DNA of 64,000 nucleotides. It comes from Clostridiaceae bacterium. GTDB lineage: Bacteria; Bacillota; Clostridia; Saccharofermentanales; DTU023. Location: contig JAAZKK010000080.1 in assembly GCA_012799825.1 (NCBI GenBank), forward strand, positions 1,004-65,003. Direction: 5' to 3'. Every line of letters begins with the position of its first letter. Within the stretch, counting starts at the first letter, position 1. A program made the position numbers and the translations under genes. Under the pieces are notes generated by a model. It did not search any database. It was not told where the DNA came from and was given only the letters and a program-made list of their open reading frames with translations. Shown here in pieces: positions 1,813-38,568 of the stretch.

Positions 1813-3117
1813 ATGTCCGACAAGAATCGCCGCAATGGCTATACACCCGTTCACTGTTCTTTTTGTGGTAAAACGGAGCAGCAAGTGGAGCGGATGATTT
1901 CGGGGCCTGGTGTTTATATCTGCAATGAGTGTGTCGCGCTCTGCGACGAAATGCTGTCGACCCACATATCCGGATTTGACGAGTGTGCATCCGACGCATT
2001 TTCCGGAAAAATGAATTTGCTCACGCCTCGCGAAATTAAAGCGCGTCTTGATGAGTACGTAATCGGGCAGGATCTTGCCAAAAAAGTGCTTGCCGTCTCC
2101 GTCTACAATCATTACAAACGCGTTTTTTCAGACTATGTGGAAGAAGTGGATGAAGATGTCGAGCTTGCGAAGACGAACATCATGCTCATCGGTCCTACTG
2201 GTTCCGGAAAGACACTCCTCGCGCAAACGCTGGCACGTATTTTGAATGTGCCCTTTGCCATCGCGGACGCGACCGCGTTGACGGAGGCGGGCTACGTCGG
2301 TGAAGATGTAGAAAATATCCTTCTTCGCCTGATTCAAAACGCGGATTTTAATATCAAAGCTGCCGAACGTGGAATCATCTACATTGACGAGATCGATAAA
2401 ATAGCCCGCAAGTCGGACAATCCGTCCATCACGAGAGATGTTTCCGGAGAAGGCGTGCAGCAGGCGTTGCTTAAAATACTTGAAAGCACAGTGGCCAATG
2501 TACCGCCGCAGGGGGGGCGCAAACATCCGCACCAAGAATTTATCCAAATCGATACAACAAATATTCTGTTCATCTTGGGCGGCGCGTTTGATGGCCTTGA
2601 CAAGGTTATTGCCAATCGCATCGGAGAGCAATCGATGGGATTTGGCGCTGATATCGAGGGCACACGGAATCTGAAGAGCGAAGAATTGTTCGAGCATTTG
2701 CTTCCGGAAGATTTGCTCCATTACGGCTTGATTCCCGAATTTGTCGGGCGCGTTCCCGTCGTTGTGGCGCTTACGGAGCTCGATGAAGAAGCGTTGGTGC
2801 GCATCTTGAAAGAACCGCGCAACGCTCTTTTGAAACAGTACCGCAAACTCTTGCGCTACGACGATGTAGAGCTGTTCTTTGACGATGACGCTACCTCTGC
2901 GATCGCGAAAAAAGCGCTTGAGCTGAAAACTGGCGCTCGAGGCCTGCGCACAATCATTGAGGGGCTGATGCTGGACATCATGTATGAGGTGCCCTCAAGT
3001 GAGAATGTAAACGCCATCCGTATCACCGAAGCGAGCGTGCTGGGCAAGGAAAAACCGAAGATTGAGCGCCGTCAAGCGACGGACGCGCTTCCTGAACCGA
3101 AGAGTGCGGAAGCGTAG
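1813..3117 (+). CDS. clpX: ATP-dependent Clp protease ATP-binding subunit ClpX
   Basis: N-terminal zinc finger CSFCGK..CNEC, Walker A GPTGSGKT and Walker [15 protein letters not shown] lies 9 nt upstream of ATG 1813. Confidence 0.95.
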
Positions 3118-3249
3118 TTGACGCATTCTGATTTCTTTATGATAGCATATAGACGATTCGACGCTCTGTTTCGACAATTTGACGGCTAATGGTAGGCAAT
3201 AGTCGCCAAAAGTCTTCGTTCACTGTTTTATTAGCGGTAGACTTTTCTC

Positions 3250-4311
3250 ATGGAAAAGAGATCGCGTTATTTTTTGAAACCGTTGAAAAAGTTTTCGGAT
3301 GTTCGGGTTATATCGCTTCTTTGTCGGACACGTACGCCTTATCTTATTCGCTGTTATGGTGTTGCGATGTCGGAAGAAGATCTGCCGAACGCATCATTCG
3401 AAATAGAAGGCAAAGCGCTTAAAACAACAGATGCTCCACATCGATCAGTACCTGCCGTTCGATTGGATCCGCCTCCTCCTGAGCGCATGGTTGTGTTTGA
3501 ATATCTTGAAGGAGTTTCTTTTTCTGAAATATCCCGCAAAAAGTTGCCTACATTTTCTTGGGAAATGTGGTTTGATCAGATCGCACAGTCGCTCGCGTGG
3601 TTATCCCATATTGCCGGTGCGCCGATCATGCATGGAGATATTGCGCCCGGCAATGTGATGCTTCTTTCATATGACCGACCGGTTCTCGTGGACTTCTCGT
3701 CGGCACGTCTTCTCGATGGCGCATGCCCGACACCGCCGACGATGTTTTCAGGTACCGTATCTTATGCCGCGCCCGAATGCCTAACGGCAGCGCCGTGTCC
3801 GGAAAGTGACCTTTTCAGCTTGGCCATGACGTTTCTTTCCGTTATGTCCGGTGTCCCGGGAAAGCGACTGACGGATAAGAGGATTCGGCGGGAACTTAGA
3901 CGGATTGAATCGCCTTTTCAGGAGAAACTTTTCGGTTGTCTTTCGCCGGATCCTAAAGTGCGCCGAAAATCTGTCGCCGCTTCGTGGACATCGCTCGTCT
4001 ACGGCGCGCCCATCGCGACAAGACAAGATGTTCATATCGCTCCCGTCGCGGCACTAAGTTCAGAACAAAGATCGGAGTCGACAGAGCTTACGTACCGCGA
4101 CACATCGATTGCTGCAACGACAACTGCAGTTGAAGACAATGAAAGGTCACAGGTACCACCTATCCCGTCCGAATGCCGAAAGAATGTGCGAGACGAGACA
4201 CTCACCCAAACGGACGCATTGGAACGCTGTCCCTTTGAAGTGTCAACATGTCCCTTTCTTAAAGCGGCGTCCGCACTTTTATCAGACAAAGAGATATCCG
4301 TGCTACAATGA
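3250..4311 (+). CDS. Ser/Thr-kinase-like protein that lacks the glycine loop and beta3 lysine (possible pseudokinase)
   Basis: Kinase C-lobe motifs are present: HGDIAPGNVM (catalytic loop), VDFS (DFG-like) and GTVSYAAPE (APE). An in-frame stop at 3238-3240 prevents any N-terminal extension. There is no GxGxxG or VAIK. Confidence 0.6.
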   Translation: MEKRSRYFLKPLKKFSDVRVISLLCRTRTPYLIRCYGVAMSEEDLPNASFEIEGKALKTTDAPHRSVPAVRLDPPPPERMVVFEYLEGVSFSEISRKKLPTFSWEMWFDQIAQSLAWLSHIAGAPIMHGDIAPGNVMLLSYDRPVLVDFSSARLLDGACPTPPTMFSGTVSYAAPECLTAAPCPESDLFSLAMTFLSVMSGVPGKRLTDKRIRRELRRIESPFQEKLFGCLSPDPKVRRKSVAASWTSLVYGAPIATRQDVHIAPVAALSSEQRSESTELTYRDTSIAATTTAVEDNERSQVPPIPSECRKNVRDETLTQTDALERCPFEVSTCPFLKAASALLSDKEISVLQ

Positions 4312-24834: not shown

Positions 24835-24850
24835 AGCTAAAATAGAATTA

Positions 24851-25183
24851 AAGGCAGTGAAGGGAAGAGTAAACTCGACGGTGATCGACAGAGAACCCGG
24901 TAAGGTGGAAGCGGGACGAGCCGAGAAGTTGAACATGGCCCCTGAGCCGCGGCGCTGAGCTTGTGCCAGACTGTTTCATAACAGGATAATGAGACTAGTT
25001 GAATATTCAAAATGTTCAACGTCCGGAACAGCGAATCAAGTTAGGTGTCGACGGGTGCGCCCGTTATCGCGCCGGAGTATGATAGTACTCTTTGAGGTCT
25101 GTCTCGTGAGGGATAGGCGAATCTGGGTGGTACCACGGATCATGTCCGTCCCGGAACCGAAAGGTTTCGGGACGGATTTTTTT
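24851..25183 (+). promoter_or_regulatory. T-box riboswitch leader with an AUG (Met) specifier, controlling metNIQ
   Basis: K-turn GUGA (24857) and CUGA (24942), AG bay CAGAGAA (24889), distal loop GGUGGAA (24904). The specifier-loop AUG is at 24935-24937, followed by a purine. The T-box sequence AAUCUGGGUGGUACCACGG is at 25120-25138. A 14-bp terminator stem spans 25145-25176, followed by U7. Confidence 0.85.
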
Positions 25184-25379: not shown

Positions 25380-26411
<1,032 letters not shown>

Positions 26412-33940: not shown

Positions 33941-34302
33941 CGGTGCGTGCAATTCTATAAATCATGCGCAAAAATCAGAAGAATAATCGCGCAGAATACC
34001 TTTTCTGCTGCCCAACTTCTTTTGGCATTCTGCTAAAAGAATGGTCGCAATGACGTATGACCCAATGCGGAGCATAAAGCGTATAAGGCGCATTTGTAAG
34101 ATATAATTTCTGTCACATTTATCCGAGAAAGTGTCCTGCGGATTTTTCACTTGAAGAAGAGTTGACGTGGGGGCATGATGACATTATGTTGTTTTCTCGG
34201 TATCGAGCGCCATTCGGCGCAGGAACCTAGGTGCGGATCGGCTGATTATTTTTGTCGAGACTGTCATATCGTGCCGCAGGATCATGGAGCAGAGTTTTGC
34301 GT

Positions 34303-35307
34303 ATGCACAAGTCAGATCATCAACGGTTCTCTTATGCCGCGACTGATCATGATGCAGTGAGCCGTTTTCTACACAACATCTCTCTTTGCAAAGACTGGAT
34401 ATTAGGCGAATGCGTTGTAAAGGAACAAGAAAGTCCGTTAGCTATTTATCAGGCGACAAATCGCGACGGATATCCTTTTTTGCTTTACGTCTCGCCTATT
34501 CGTACTTGGGGCAGAGAAGAGCGTATTCATCAGCACGTTATTCGTGTGAATCGCGCACTGGCACAAGGCTCATTTCGGTACAATGCCTGCGAACCAATGA
34601 TTCAGCAACCAACGTGGATTCGATCAGGTGATTTTTTCTTTGGCATTACACCTGATCGAGGATTGCAGTCTATATTCAAGATGGCGCCATTTCATAATCG
34701 TTCGAGCTTCATTTTGAACACAATACATATTACTGCACTGTTCCGCTTTTTAGAATGTGATATCTGGCCTTTCACACGCGAAGCAGAGAGCAGTGAAGAT
34801 TTGCTCGTTAAAGCAACAGCGTTGTATGACAAGGTTGCTCCGAGACTGCATAACGCTTCGGAAATACCGAGGCGCTGGGGGCATTTTTATCGCCACAATG
34901 CGGAGACGGCTGCCAGAACACACGATTTTACACCGGTTTATACGGTTGGTGATTTTCTATCAGAATGTCTGGTGTACTGTCCGGAACGTGAAACACTCTA
35001 TCTTGAAGGAGCGTTTTCCTTTTCTCCGGGTACGCGCGGCGACGATCTCTGCGATCTTCTATATTTGCTTAGGAAGCAGTCTGCAGAGGACAAGCAGTAC
35101 TTTATTGATTTCTATTTCCATTTGAATGTGCCGAATCATTTTTTTACGTATCTTTCCTATAAGCATATGTCACACTTGTTGGAACAGATCGCCAACAGTG
35201 CCATCGGGTCAAGAGAGGATCAGATCGGTCGAGATGAATTGCGACGATTTTCTGAGTCTCGGGAAGGCTTTCGAACACCGGTGCCAGTTTGGTACAAATC
35301 ATCTTAA
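34303..35307 (+). CDS. Hypothetical protein; weak resemblance to APH/CotS-type phosphotransferases, with the catalytic residues substituted
   Basis: The size (~335 aa) and segment order resemble CotS/APH kinases. ..VGDFLSECLVY.. stands where HGDxxxxN is expected, and ..LEGAFSFSPGTRGDDLCDLLY.. where DxE..G....DLA is expected. The start is uncertain (ATG 34303 or TTG 34252). Confidence 0.4.
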   Translation: MHKSDHQRFSYAATDHDAVSRFLHNISLCKDWILGECVVKEQESPLAIYQATNRDGYPFLLYVSPIRTWGREERIHQHVIRVNRALAQGSFRYNACEPMIQQPTWIRSGDFFFGITPDRGLQSIFKMAPFHNRSSFILNTIHITALFRFLECDIWPFTREAESSEDLLVKATALYDKVAPRLHNASEIPRRWGHFYRHNAETAARTHDFTPVYTVGDFLSECLVYCPERETLYLEGAFSFSPGTRGDDLCDLLYLLRKQSAEDKQYFIDFYFHLNVPNHFFTYLSYKHMSHLLEQIANSAIGSREDQIGRDELRRFSESREGFRTPVPVWYKSS

Positions 35308-35958: not shown

Positions 35959-36438
35959 ATGAACGGCATTAAGTACTTCAGAAAAAAGAACAGAATGACT
36001 CAGAGCAATCTCGCAAAAATGTTAGGCGTAACGCAGACATCTGTCAGTCAATGGGAGAGCGGGCGGAATTATCCGGACATTAAAACGGCGAAGCGTTTGG
36101 CAGAACTTTTCTCGGCCTCACTCGACCAAATTCTTGGAACGGTTGATATGGCGGAAGAGGATCTGTTGATGGCGCCGAGCAAGAAGCGAATCATACTGGA
36201 AGCAAGAGATGACCTCGATGAGAAGGAAGTCGTTTTGCTAGAACAGAAAATGCGTTTGATTGAATTGATGGACAAGCTTTCTCCGCTTGCGCGTCAACGC
36301 GTGATTGATCGGGCTGAAATCTATTACGAGGTTCAGAATTGTGATGCTGCCAATGCGGCCATAGCGCAAAAAGTTTCATCCTCTTCCGATTCGGCAAGCG
36401 AAGAATTGGTGGCCGAAGAGGCTGCAGCTGAAGCCTAA
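35959..36438 (+). CDS. XRE-family helix-turn-helix transcriptional regulator with an acidic C-terminal extension
   Basis: Contains MTQSNLAKMLGVTQTSVSQWESGRNYPDIKTAKRLAELF, a Cro/C1 HTH. AAAGGA RBS. Confidence 0.85.
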   Translation: MNGIKYFRKKNRMTQSNLAKMLGVTQTSVSQWESGRNYPDIKTAKRLAELFSASLDQILGTVDMAEEDLLMAPSKKRIILEARDDLDEKEVVLLEQKMRLIELMDKLSPLARQRVIDRAEIYYEVQNCDAANAAIAQKVSSSSDSASEELVAEEAAAEA

Positions 36439-36511
36439 GGCCGTTTAATTTAATTTAATGAATGGAAAGAGACGCTCATTCTCATTGCAGTTGCACGATG
36501 AAGTGTGTTGT

Positions 36512-36540
36512 TTGACAGGGTTAGCTTGTGATGGTAGTAT
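36512..36540 (+). promoter_or_regulatory. Strong sigma-A-like promoter with no annotated gene behind it
   Basis: TTGACA (36512-36517), a 17-nt spacer containing the TG extended -10 at 36532-36533, then TAGTAT (36535-36540). Confidence 0.45.
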
Positions 36541-36841
36541 AAAAACTACCTCTAAGATGCCACTAGGCGGAATGGTCACCGAATTTGCGTGACAGGCGTC
36601 GATATGGCGTGTGAGGATGAAAGCCTCGAAGACCGCATTCGGGCAGATAAGATCTCCGCAGCGATGGGTCGCTAACCCTGTTTCTCTTTACTTTTGGCGG
36701 AGGATCTTACGAAAAAGCCTATATGCCACAGCAGGATTTCAGACCGGGCACATCCAAGAAGACATCGGACTTCAAGCCGGTCAGCGGTCGACACATGGAG
36801 GCAAGGAAGGAGGCCGTACTTTGAAAGTACACCTCGAAGAG

Positions 36842-36895
36842 ACGGGCAGGTAGCTCCTGAGTGTTTCATGGCACCGGAGCCTGCCCGTTTCATTT
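36842..36895 (+). terminator. Intrinsic-terminator-like hairpin ~300 nt downstream of the orphan promoter
   Basis: ACGGGCAGG (36842-36850) pairs with CCTGCCCGT (36880-36888), and there is an inner CTCC/GGAG stem. TTTCATTT follows. Confidence 0.45.
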
Positions 36896-36996
36896 GGCGG
36901 TACAGTCTTTCCAAGAATACTTGTTTGCAAGTGCGACACGCCGCGTATCAAATACTCTTGGAAGCGATGCGGTCACCCTACACCTAATTACGAACG

Positions 36997-38223
36997 ATGT
37001 TGAAAGATTCGATAAAAGGAAAACAAAAAGTATTGCTCGCCTTATCCGGAGGTGTGGACAGTGTGGCGTCGGCGATCCTGCTCAAGCGTATGCATGACGT
37101 AGAAACGGTGACGTTTCTTTTGAAAGGTGACACGGAACAGCAAAAGGAGCAAACAGCGATAGCGTCGGAAATCGCCAAAAAATTGGGGCTTTCGCATCAT
37201 GTTCTGGATTTGACACAACGTTTTCGTGAGTATGTTCTGCAACCTTTTCTTGAAGCTTGGCGCTCCGGCAAGACGCCCAATCCCTGTGTTATGTGCAATC
37301 CTCACGTCAAGTTTAAGGCGCTGATGGCGCTTGCCTCGAAATTGAATTGTCAGGGTATAGCAACAGGGCATTACGCGCGCGTAGGCGAGGGGAGCGACAA
37401 TGGCGGCGTTGCGCTCGATGATAAACTTGTACGGAACGACATCAAGGTGTACGCGGACTGCGCTCGACGCGGTTATCGTAATTCTTCCTGCAAGACATGC
37501 CGCGATGACGACGCGACAAGAGCGGTCGACAGGGCGAGAGGTGAACGCCCCGTTTTTCTTTATCGTGCCGCTGATCCCGTGCGAGATCAGAGCTATTTTA
37601 TGTATCGATTAACTCCTGACGTCTTGCGATGTGTCCTTTTTCCTGTAGGCGGCCTCAGCAAGGATGAGGTGCGCTCAATTGTCACTGAGGAAGGACTTTC
37701 TGTCGCGACTGAGAAAGACAGTCAGGATCTTTGTTTTCTTGACGGGCAATCGCTTAGAACTTATCTCAGAGAACGGATCGGCCGGGAAGAGCCGGGGCCA
37801 TTCTTAGATCTAGAAGGACACGTCATCGGAGAACATGACGGCATCTGGCAATTTACAGTTGGACAACGGCGTCACCTCGGAGCGTCATTTGGACGGCGCA
37901 TGACAGTGTTGGCGCTAGAACCTGAGCGCAATGCCGTCATACTGGGCGATGAGCCTGACGCCCTGATGGAGGCTCTCATACTGAAAGATTGTTTTTTTCC
38001 TTACGATATGCCGCAGCATTTTGATGCTACGGTGAAGCTCCGTTCGCAGGGCATTCCGCTCGCTGCCCATGTTGAGAAGAAATGTGACACCGAAGTCTTG
38101 GTGCGATTTAATGCGCCGGTTCGTCTGTCGTCGCCGGGACAGTCTGCCGTATTCTATGAGAATGACCGAGTACTAGGCGGAGGCGTTGTTTCTCGCCTTT
38201 TGCGGTTGAAAAGCAAGCCATGA
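36997..38223 (+). CDS. mnmA: tRNA 2-thiouridine(34) synthase MnmA, with an internal insertion
   Basis: PP-loop LALSGGVDS, catalytic NPCVMCN, GHYAR and RDQSYF. About 45 extra residues lie between GHYAR and DQSYF. Confidence 0.92.
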   Translation: MLKDSIKGKQKVLLALSGGVDSVASAILLKRMHDVETVTFLLKGDTEQQKEQTAIASEIAKKLGLSHHVLDLTQRFREYVLQPFLEAWRSGKTPNPCVMCNPHVKFKALMALASKLNCQGIATGHYARVGEGSDNGGVALDDKLVRNDIKVYADCARRGYRNSSCKTCRDDDATRAVDRARGERPVFLYRAADPVRDQSYFMYRLTPDVLRCVLFPVGGLSKDEVRSIVTEEGLSVATEKDSQDLCFLDGQSLRTYLRERIGREEPGPFLDLEGHVIGEHDGIWQFTVGQRRHLGASFGRRMTVLALEPERNAVILGDEPDALMEALILKDCFFPYDMPQHFDATVKLRSQGIPLAAHVEKKCDTEVLVRFNAPVRLSSPGQSAVFYENDRVLGGGVVSRLLRLKSKP

Positions 38224-38292
38224 TGTGGTAAAATAGTGTCAAATGGCGAAGTGTGCGCCTTTTTAAAAAAGTACAAGATCGAGGTGGTTTAA

Positions 38293-38568
38293 TTGATCGA
38301 AAAATCAGACTTGGCTTATTGCCGTGAACAGCTTGAATCAAAGCTTGGACAACGTATCATTTTAAAATCAAACGGCGGTCGTCGCCGAACAGTTATTCAT
38401 GAGGGATATCTCGAGAATTGTTCTTCTAACGTATTCACGGTATGTTGTCCCGTAAGTCCTGTTTACAATGAACATGTCTGTTTCAGTTATATCGATCTCC
38501 TGACAAAAGTTGTAGAGGTCGCTTTCAATGACGAGGAGCTCGAAGAGCTCATGAAAGATGATGCTTAA
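38293..38568 (+). CDS. veg: Veg (biofilm formation stimulator) family protein
   Basis: ..LESKLGQRIILKSNGGRRRTVIHEGYLE..VF.. aligns with B. subtilis Veg. The TTG start follows a GAGGTGG RBS. It is adjacent to ispE, as in Bacillus. Confidence 0.85.
   Translation: MIEKSDLAYCREQLESKLGQRIILKSNGGRRRTVIHEGYLENCSSNVFTVCCPVSPVYNEHVCFSYIDLLTKVVEVAFNDEELEELMKDDA

Follow-up and report, generated by a model that had tools for sequence, protein, structure and literature searches.

The locus upstream of mnmA, the gene for the tRNA 2-thiouridine synthase, in a Clostridiaceae bacterium raises the question of what purpose is served by a unit of about 350 nt that runs from a near-consensus promoter to a GC-rich hairpin and seems to hold no conventional gene. 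We analyzed this unit within a 64,000-nt stretch of contig JAAZKK010000080.1 (assembly GCA_012799825.1), hereafter called the window. The initial annotation had proposed that the unit may be an unclassified small RNA (sRNA) or leader or, failing that, a remnant resembling a miniature inverted-repeat transposable element (MITE). Comparison with relatives bears out the first of these views. Judged from the aligned sequences, positions 36547-36896 of the plus strand are a member of an undescribed family of structured RNAs, 325-360 nt in length, which is conserved at 18 loci, shows strand-specific covariation and matched no described RNA family, including those in Rfam.

Relatives were gathered by a genome scan with the mnmA protein, which gave two syntenic relatives, then by a search with an invariant 22-mer of the RNA element, which matched 12 metagenome contigs and no viral contig (0 matches), and then by protein-guided look-ups. 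After removal of duplicates, the family comprised 18 distinct loci from uncultured anaerobic-digester Clostridia, whose source assemblies are labelled Clostridiaceae or Saccharofermentanales. The loci fell into four subgroups: group A (the window, L001, L002 and L008), group B (11 members), group C (L017 and L031) and group D (L034), with ~45% identity between groups. Within group A, a near-invariant block extended from just 5′ of the −35 element to the end of the hairpin, and the sequence beyond the hairpin was unalignable. In these alignments the RNA is better conserved than the neighbouring sequence: the core and 3′ part were 97% and 89% identical to those of L002 and L001, respectively, the corresponding values for mnmA were 81% and 70%, and the spacer after the hairpin was 32-38% identical. 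Loci whose mnmA products share ~45% amino-acid identity had the same arrangement and a recognisably homologous RNA element. The element was single-copy and syntenic, occurring once in the window and once per locus, and neither covariance model (R1 for the core and R2 for the 3′ module, see below) found second copies or a regulon across 233 kb of collected sequence. As far as sampled, the family is confined to one lineage of uncultured digester Clostridia.

The claim that the RNA is structured rests on covariation, because single-sequence folding energy was not distinctive (z = −1.7 for the plus strand of the window and −1.95 for the minus strand). An alignment of all groups made with MAFFT and folded with RNAalifold recovered the 3′ hairpins alone, and the core required a group-B seed and a covariance model. 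RNAalifold folded the ten full-length group-B sequences into a core that is closed by the stacked helices Pa and Pb and carries a long arm of Pc, Pd and Pe and a short arm of Pf and Pg (Table 1). The covariance model R1, which was built from group B alone, matched the window full-length at 36619-36807 (E = 0.008) and also matched the other group-A members (E = 0.002-0.03), L034 (E = 0.04) and L036, which was not in the seed (E = 1e-23). Group C matched R1 only weakly (L031, E = 0.06 with filters off; L017, no match), and these two loci were placed in the family because their promoter, 5′ end and 3′ module agree with those of the other members.

Standard pairs made up 90% of the cells in the core alignment, compared with 34-44% when the partners were slid, and 29 of the 43 pairs were altered on both sides; these values were attained in 0 of 500 shuffles. 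For example, Pa occurred as GCCUC/GAGGC in group A and as GUCCC/GGGAC in group B, and Pb occurred as GACCGC/GCGGUC, GAUCGC/GCGAUC or GACUGC/GCAGUC. The core helices recurred in the unconstrained minimum free energy (MFE) fold of the window. The local GAGG/CCUC hairpin that had been proposed at 36613-27 did not hold, as covariation instead pairs CCUC 36624-27 with GAGG 36798-801. A candidate pseudoknot between the Pg loop (GUCU) and a 5′ AUAGAC showed no consistent covariation by eye. On these alignments, the structure of the RNA is real and its covariation, which includes many G-U pairs, is strand-specific. Both conservation and covariation, which had been proposed initially as things to look for in relatives, were found.

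We see practically no chance that the interval holds no functional RNA and is instead a decayed or unannotated coding gene on either strand, a MITE-like remnant or a set of chance signals. Such a reading could draw on the open reading frames (ORFs) of 80-97 amino acids (aa) in the window, on the long stop-free antisense frames in many relatives, some of which are annotated by gene callers, and on a perfect inverted repeat of 11 nt. However, the 80-97-aa ORFs over the RNA had no Pfam match, the antisense frames were not homologous between members, the variable columns showed no 3-periodicity, and gaps were mostly of 1-2 nt. The protein-coding reading was rejected on these grounds, and with no Pfam match and no codon periodicity, the decayed gene considered in the initial annotation fell with it. 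With 54-59% A+G, the plus strand of the RNA is rich in purines, and its antisense strand accordingly has few stops. Gene callers place a 137-aa antisense ORF across the RNA in L024/L025 (2028-2441, minus strand), and the P0033 mnmA ORF is stretched upstream into the hairpin (L029 2501).

The inverted repeat itself (36515-25/36671-81) is present and is one nucleotide longer than the 10 nt first described, but it does not stand as a DNA-level feature. A perfect repeat of this kind occurred in 25 of 300 shuffles (8%). Its first arm lies in the untranscribed promoter spacer and is unconserved outside group A, its second arm lies in helix Pe, and the repeat is found in group A only. A MITE-like remnant was rejected: the element is single-copy and syntenic, the repeat arms do not mark the ends of the conserved block, and the repeat does not exceed chance. 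The strand-specific covariation also counts against all such readings.

The unit begins with promoter P1, which lies where it had first been placed. Its match was not significant by itself (9 promoter-like sites in 3 kb versus 4.1 expected from shuffles); that P1 exceeds chance follows from its conservation across relatives and not from the score of a single site. All 17 relatives whose 5′ end is intact retained the −35 and the −10, and most or all of them the TG of the extended −10 as well, and the spacer sequence differed between groups. These members had TTGAC(A/G) and a TAnnnT-type −10, separated by 17 nt, or by 18 nt in L020. The sequence (A)ACCU(C/U), at which the transcript would begin, followed 6-7 nt 3′ of the −10 in 17/17; it contains CCUC in all of them but L025 and L029 (15 members), and these two have CCUU. 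In the 5′ domain, changes within group A were compatible with G-U pairing, such as GUCAC/GUGAC to GUCGC/GUGAU. Two of the small hairpins listed in the initial annotation, GUCAC/GUGAC and GUAC/GUAC, were present, and a third, GGTAGT/ACTACC (36533-50), had to be discarded: it runs over both the −10 and the start of transcription, and it is disrupted in L001 and L002.

The element TCATTGCAGTTGCACGAT precedes the −35 in group A. Group B has ATAATCATTCA...GGATAAAT at this position, and no equivalent was seen at that place in groups C and D, which are without the XRE gene. This element may be an operator or an UP-like element; because it is absent where the adjacent XRE-family gene is absent, it is perhaps an operator of that regulator (35959-36438).

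The 3′ module was almost invariant in 18/18 members. It starts with a hairpin whose Shine-Dalgarno (SD) segment, GGAAAGGAGG (GGAAGGAGG in group A), pairs through GAGG with CCUC and whose GUAC/GUAC stem closes a 7-8-nt loop that contains UUG in every member. This hairpin was found once in the window, and its stems were invariant in all 18 members and its loop varied. That both strands are invariant, while the other helices covary freely, fits a sequence fixed by ribosome binding. In 18/18 members, the SD GGAGG lay 5-8 nt 5′ of the UUG, and the UUG was followed by a predicted mini-ORF with exactly 10 sense codons, no internal indel and the peptide pattern M-[K/E/T]-V-H-L-x-[E/G]-[T/A]-G-[R/S]. 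The stop occupied one fixed position in the 5′ arm of the GC-rich hairpin in all 18; groups A and C use UAG, group B uses UGA and L034 uses UAA, and the local structures differed. The earlier statement that the unit has no credible ORF stands for the 80-97-aa ORFs but not for the last 11 codons of ORF 36611-36853, which make up the conserved mini-ORF and are preceded by a strong SD.

A purine-rich linker of 5-6 nt separates the SD hairpin from the terminator-like hairpin, whose presence after the promoter had been noted at the outset (36842-36895) and which is conserved. Its arms ACGGGCAGG (36842-50) and CCUGCCCGU (36880-88) pair with each other in a lower stem of 11 bp, which is continued by an inner stem, and the 3′ module folded at −35 to −45 kcal/mol in all members. 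Every member retained the lower stem, GRRACGGGCAG/CUGCCCGUUUC; group C shows double changes from G-C to A-U, and purines pair with U at the base of the stem. The inner stem differed by subgroup (GCUCC, GAUUCCC, AUCCC) and retained its pairing. The window has the tail UUUCAUUUG, whose UUUC can alternatively pair with purines 5′ of the stem; several relatives have UUUCGUAUG or UUUCGCGUC instead. R2, the covariance model of the 3′ module, gave 71-105 bits on the plus strand versus 14-27 bits on the minus strand (77 versus 17 in the window). A terminator scan omitted this hairpin, whose loop is >8 nt.

Table 1. Features of the RNA unit and its downstream gene in the window
Feature	Coordinates	Strand	Description
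Element TCATTGCAGTTGCACGAT	36482-36499	+	5′ of −35; conserved in group A; membership in unit uncertain
Promoter P1	36512-36540	+	TTGACA 36512-36517; 17-nt spacer with TG 36532-33; TAGTAT 36535-36540; score 10/12
5′ domain and predicted transcription start (~36547)	36547-36618	+	start predicted as −10 plus 7 nt
5′ domain helix CCUC/GAGG	36549-52/36613-16	+	MFE fold
5′ domain helix AUGCCA/UGGCGU	36557-62/36605-10	+	MFE fold
5′ domain helix GUCAC/GUGAC	36575-79/36589-93	+	MFE fold
Core domain	36619-36807	+	multi-branch fold; covariance model R1, MFE fold
Helix Pa	36623-27/36798-802	+	core
Helix Pb	36631-36/36784-89	+	core
Helix Pc	36642-48/36721-27	+	core
Helix Pd	36649-59/36697-708	+	core
Helix Pe	36666-69/36675-78	+	core
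Helix Pf	36742-47/36777-82	+	core
Helix Pg	36758-63/36768-73	+	core
SD-sequestering hairpin	36809-36835	+	GGAGG 36809-13 (GAGG 36810-13)/CCUC 36832-35; GUAC 36816-19/GUAC 36827-30; loop UUUGAAA with UUG
Predicted mini-ORF	36821-36853	+	UUG AAA GUA CAC CUC GAA GAG ACG GGC AGG UAG; MKVHLEETGR
Terminator-like hairpin	36839-36896	+	lower stem GAGACGGGCAGG/CCUGCCCGUUUC; inner stem GCUCC 36853-57/GGAGC 36876-80; tail UUUCAUUUG
Spacer before mnmA	36897-36996	+	poorly conserved; inverted repeat 36909-23/36949-63
mnmA (tRNA 2-thiouridine synthase)	36997-38223	+	ORF; Pfam tRNA_Me_trans families

Rfam 15 (4227 models), searched with the window and seven relatives at gathering and E-value thresholds up to E = 10, returned no family in the RNA; permissive searches gave chance miRNA-like matches on the hairpin only. 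ARAGORN found no tRNA or transfer-messenger RNA (tmRNA) in the window. The housekeeping RNAs (tmRNA, RNase P RNA, signal recognition particle (SRP) RNA and 6S RNA) were rejected with no Rfam match, and the Rfam search agrees with the failure to match these, T-box or riboswitch sequences by eye in the initial annotation. Literature searches found no mnmA leader, riboswitch or attenuator and no regulatory RNA for tRNA 2-thiolation.

Like T-box leaders, the RNA is a multi-arm Firmicute unit of 250-350 nt that extends from promoter to terminator and precedes a tRNA-linked gene, but mnmA is neither an aminoacyl-tRNA synthetase gene nor an amino-acid gene. The T-box model RF00230 gave no match up to E = 10, either within 36350-37100 or for the RNA of seven other members, and a pattern search for the T-box sequence AGGGUGGNACCGCG with 3 mismatches found no site in 36547-36896. 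As a positive control, the same model found a T-box leader at 24848-25156 (+) with 80.2 bits (E about 1e-17 to 1e-16). Because this real T-box in the same window was recovered, one in the RNA would have been detected. No conserved antiterminator was found either: truncated folds and RNAduplex with both hairpin arms gave subgroup-specific partners only. With the model, the T-box sequence and the shared-arm antiterminator all negative, a T-box leader was ruled out. The leader at 24848-25156 scores below the Rfam gathering score of 93 and was therefore missed by the default scan. A promoter-like site with TTGACG lies upstream of it, its terminator is strong, with seven U's, and it precedes a gene for a MetN-type ABC ATPase (25380-26411; ABC_tran + NIL) with a strong SD.

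In a wider sense, the leader could bind a macromolecule directly, either as a T-box-like tRNA sensor or as a mimic of the MnmA substrate that serves autoregulation, as in the thrS operator and the L20 leader. The size and multi-arm fold, which are comparable to those of T-box leaders, and the specificity of the RNA to the gene of a tRNA-modifying enzyme would suit such a role. So would the loop UUUGAAA, in which UGAAAG is complementary to the anticodon loop of a tRNA-Glu and CUUUGA resembles that of a tRNA-Gln. Against direct binding stand the negative RF00230 searches, given the 80 bits of the real T-box, the lack of a T-box sequence and of an antiterminator that shares the terminator arm, and the loop variants. 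These variants (UUUGGAA, GUUGGAA, GCUUGGAA and UUUGACA) keep neither a constant codon nor a 7-nt anticodon-loop mimic, and the loop as specifier or anticodon mimic was rejected because they break both ideas. We consider direct binding very improbable. The B. subtilis L20 leader of infC-rpmI-rplT acts through a terminator, and the RNA resembles the thrS and L20 leaders as a large structured leader before the gene for an RNA-binding product. Unlike them, it has no recognisable tRNA anticodon-arm mimic retained across members.

What, then, might the conserved module do? Our preferred reading, which we hold tentatively at a probability of about 45%, is that the RNA is a cis-acting attenuator unit for mnmA in which translation of the mini-ORF sets the read-through. 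The strong promoter P1 would transcribe a ~260-nt structured RNA, made up of the 5′ domain and the multi-helix core, and then the fixed 3′ module, whose first hairpin would hide the near-perfect SD and display the UUG start in its loop. The UUG would open the 10-codon mini-ORF that runs into the 5′ arm of the GC-rich terminator-like hairpin. A ribosome on the mini-ORF would cover this arm, the hairpin would not form, and RNA polymerase would read on towards mnmA. With the SD still paired, the hairpin would form and transcription would end at ~36890-36896. The frequency at which the SD hairpin opens would be governed by the core, through its binding of a ligand, a protein or a tRNA. Read-through could act either way, by supplying mnmA mRNA (group A, L034) or by occluding a leaderless promoter (groups B and C). 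We infer transcription itself, the transcript ends, the translation of the mini-ORF, the termination and the effect on mnmA, including its direction, from the sequences.

The attenuator model would explain both the invariant SD-hairpin strands amid covarying helices and the fixed position of the stop with three different stop codons. The end of the mini-ORF inside the 5′ arm makes ribosome occlusion geometrically possible. Because there is no conserved RNA antiterminator, a ribosome or a protein would be the natural opponent of the hairpin, and because no conserved RNA partner competes for the hairpin arms, the antiterminator-versus-terminator logic of riboswitches and T-boxes is missing.

The linkage to mnmA is consistent with action in cis. 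At all 18 loci mnmA directly follows the RNA and has the same orientation, and this linkage persists where the neighbours change: the upstream genes including XRE are replaced in group C, and both sides are replaced in L034. In relatives with just 44-99 nt before mnmA, the RNA is absent. The adjacency fits a functional link; inheritance alone would also preserve it. No promoter-like site was found in the 100-nt window spacer between the hairpin and mnmA, no SD before its ATG (36997), and no convincing second mnmA promoter in group A, so that in the window's own subgroup read-through from P1 appears to be the only visible source of mnmA transcripts. The inverted repeat in the window spacer is 15 nt long with 87% identity, and a covarying hairpin (GTAAT/ATTAC versus GTGAT/ATCAC) is found in the equivalent place in group C. 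In L010 alone, ~790 nt (3213-4000), including a called 78-aa minus-strand ORF, lie between the RNA and mnmA.

Several observations weigh against attenuation of mnmA by the hairpin. The U-tract is short: in the window, UUUC is followed by AUUUG, and several group-B members have GUAUG or GCGUC there. The terminator of the real T-box in the window has seven U's, and the gene behind it has a strong SD. A link between the core and the SD hairpin, for example through alternative pairing, could not be demonstrated. Neither AUG nor GUG ever replaces the UUG, and synonymous changes are lacking in codons 3-5, so both could be fixed by RNA pairing alone. In the window and most members mnmA is without an SD, which would make a read-through transcript a poor mRNA. 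In six group-B members there is a T(C/A)GACA-17/18-TAnnnT, and the one codon at which mnmA can start comes exactly 6 nt past the −10, and the same 6-nt distance to the mnmA start follows TACAAT in L029 and TGnTAAAGT, an extended −10, in group C. Altogether this arrangement was seen in L011, L012, L013, L023, L025, L029, L035, L017 and L031, often with TCGACA 17-18 nt upstream, and it points to a second promoter that would produce a leaderless mnmA mRNA in most members of groups B and C. In L034, mnmA is instead preceded by a separate promoter-like TGACATAAT and by a strong SD.

These promoters bear on a different explanation, in which the RNA is a free-standing structured noncoding RNA (ncRNA) that acts in trans or as a component of a ribonucleoprotein (RNP), mnmA is transcribed from its own promoter, and the adjacency reflects inheritance or partnership, possibly with MnmA. 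The unit is complete from its near-consensus promoter to the hairpin, its large and complex fold is nearer to RNP or structured ncRNAs than to a simple leader, and its invariant 5′-terminal CCUC could be a seed against SD regions. The second promoter with a leaderless start in most group-B and group-C members, the promoter-like site and SD of L034, and the lack of an SD before mnmA in most members would also fit. However, a free-standing RNA would not account for the perfect SD and the UUG, for a frame fixed at 10 codons or for a stop placed within the hairpin arm. The U-tract is weak for a stand-alone terminator that shields a downstream promoter, the window's own subgroup has no clear second promoter, and the RNA was never found apart from mnmA at the 18 distinct loci. 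We regard a free-standing RNA as a serious contender, less likely than the attenuator but with an appreciable chance of being right.

The codons of the mini-ORF raise a more specific idea of how an attenuator of mnmA might be tuned. MnmA makes 2-thiouridine at position 34 (s2U34) on tRNA-Lys, tRNA-Glu and tRNA-Gln, and the decoding speed of Lys and Glu codons in the mini-ORF could decide whether a ribosome arrives at the hairpin arm in time, and hence read-through and mnmA expression. Codon 2 was AAA, AAG or GAA (Lys/Glu) in 17/18 members, and Lys or Glu codons were found among codons 6-7 in 12/18. Leader-peptide attenuators are known to respond to tRNA hypomodification, a precedent being the his operon in hisT mutants. 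With a downstream leaderless promoter, moreover, faster decoding would increase read-through, occlude the promoter and yield less MnmA, which would be homeostatic. However, the mini-ORF of L036 has ACA at codon 2 and is without any Lys, Glu or Gln codon, and those of five members (L010, L013, L015, L020 and L029) have one each. The variable positions are merely purine-rich (GRAGRR), which is enough by itself to yield Lys, Glu, Gly and Arg codons. A pause at codon 2 would leave the hairpin arm, which begins ~20 nt further on, uncovered by the ribosome, and the 260-nt structured core would be left without a role. A thiolation sensor of this kind, which would be a particular form of the attenuator, is, in our estimate, highly unlikely.

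There is also a slim chance that the structured RNA and the mini-ORF together form a feedback device, in which decoding capacity, sensed for example as s2U34-dependent reading of Lys and Glu codons or through contact with hypomodified tRNA, would be converted into terminator read-through that supplies mnmA transcripts or occludes the mnmA promoter.

The proposed attenuator can be set beside several known systems. Transcription-terminating riboswitches likewise have a covarying structured domain followed by a terminator-like hairpin before one gene class; the RNA differs from them in having no Rfam match, no candidate ligand suggested by its gene context, no aptamer-linked alternative pairing, and an SD with a mini-ORF in the expression platform. 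E. coli pyrBI and the Firmicute vmlR, lmo0919 and bmrCD are ribosome-mediated attenuators with a leader peptide or a short upstream ORF. They share with the RNA a short ORF that has its own SD and is placed so as to preclude the terminator if translated. In contrast to these attenuators, the RNA has ~260 nt of covarying structure 5′ of the ORF, no antiterminator hairpin and no clear run of regulatory codons, and the gene downstream encodes a tRNA-modification enzyme, is without an SD and has a leaderless promoter in most relatives. The raiA motif RNA and OLE RNA also combine a complex conserved fold with a narrow taxonomic range and a consistent gene neighbourhood. Both are in Rfam and neither matched in sequence or structure, and the RNA differs further in the SD/mini-ORF/hairpin module directly before the linked gene.

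Some features of the genes around the RNA were also observed. The group-A MnmA proteins are 408 aa long, compared with 347-375 aa in relatives, and the ~50 extra residues are an insertion around positions 130-190. A promoter-like TTGAAA-17-TAAAAT with TG (38206-38234, plus strand) overlaps the end of mnmA just 5′ of veg (38293-38568). Because veg seems to have its own promoter, mnmA would be monocistronic. In L034, an ArsR-type helix-turn-helix (HTH) gene and a large Pyr_redox/rhodanese/TusA/DsrE fusion (sulfur trafficking) follow mnmA (2718-4119) in place of veg and ispE. Upstream, a 351-aa ORF without a Pfam match (34252-35307, plus strand) is syntenic between an aminotransferase gene and the XRE gene in groups A and B.

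Structured untranslated units that end in a regulated hairpin are a known kind; this family of them is new, and the combination of a large covarying core, an SD-hairpin mini-ORF in the expression platform, and a downstream gene that is without an SD and often leaderless is unusual. With 18 members, strong covariation and a fixed SD/mini-ORF/hairpin module, the family is a well-supported new candidate; the restricted lineage limits its reach, but it is still a clean one. Annotation is corrected in either case, for the spurious ORFs on the RNA and for mnmA genes whose calls reach into it. To have a leaderless mnmA promoter in tandem with the unit is in itself an uncommon architecture. If the RNA is free-standing, it would be a new class of structured ncRNA linked to a tRNA-modification enzyme. 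The feedback device, if true, would be the first RNA sensor dedicated to the homeostasis of a tRNA anticodon modification without a free metabolite precursor. If the RNA is cis-regulatory, it would contain an orphan sensor domain and would show how some Clostridia tune a wobble-base modification that affects the decoding of Lys, Glu and Gln codons.

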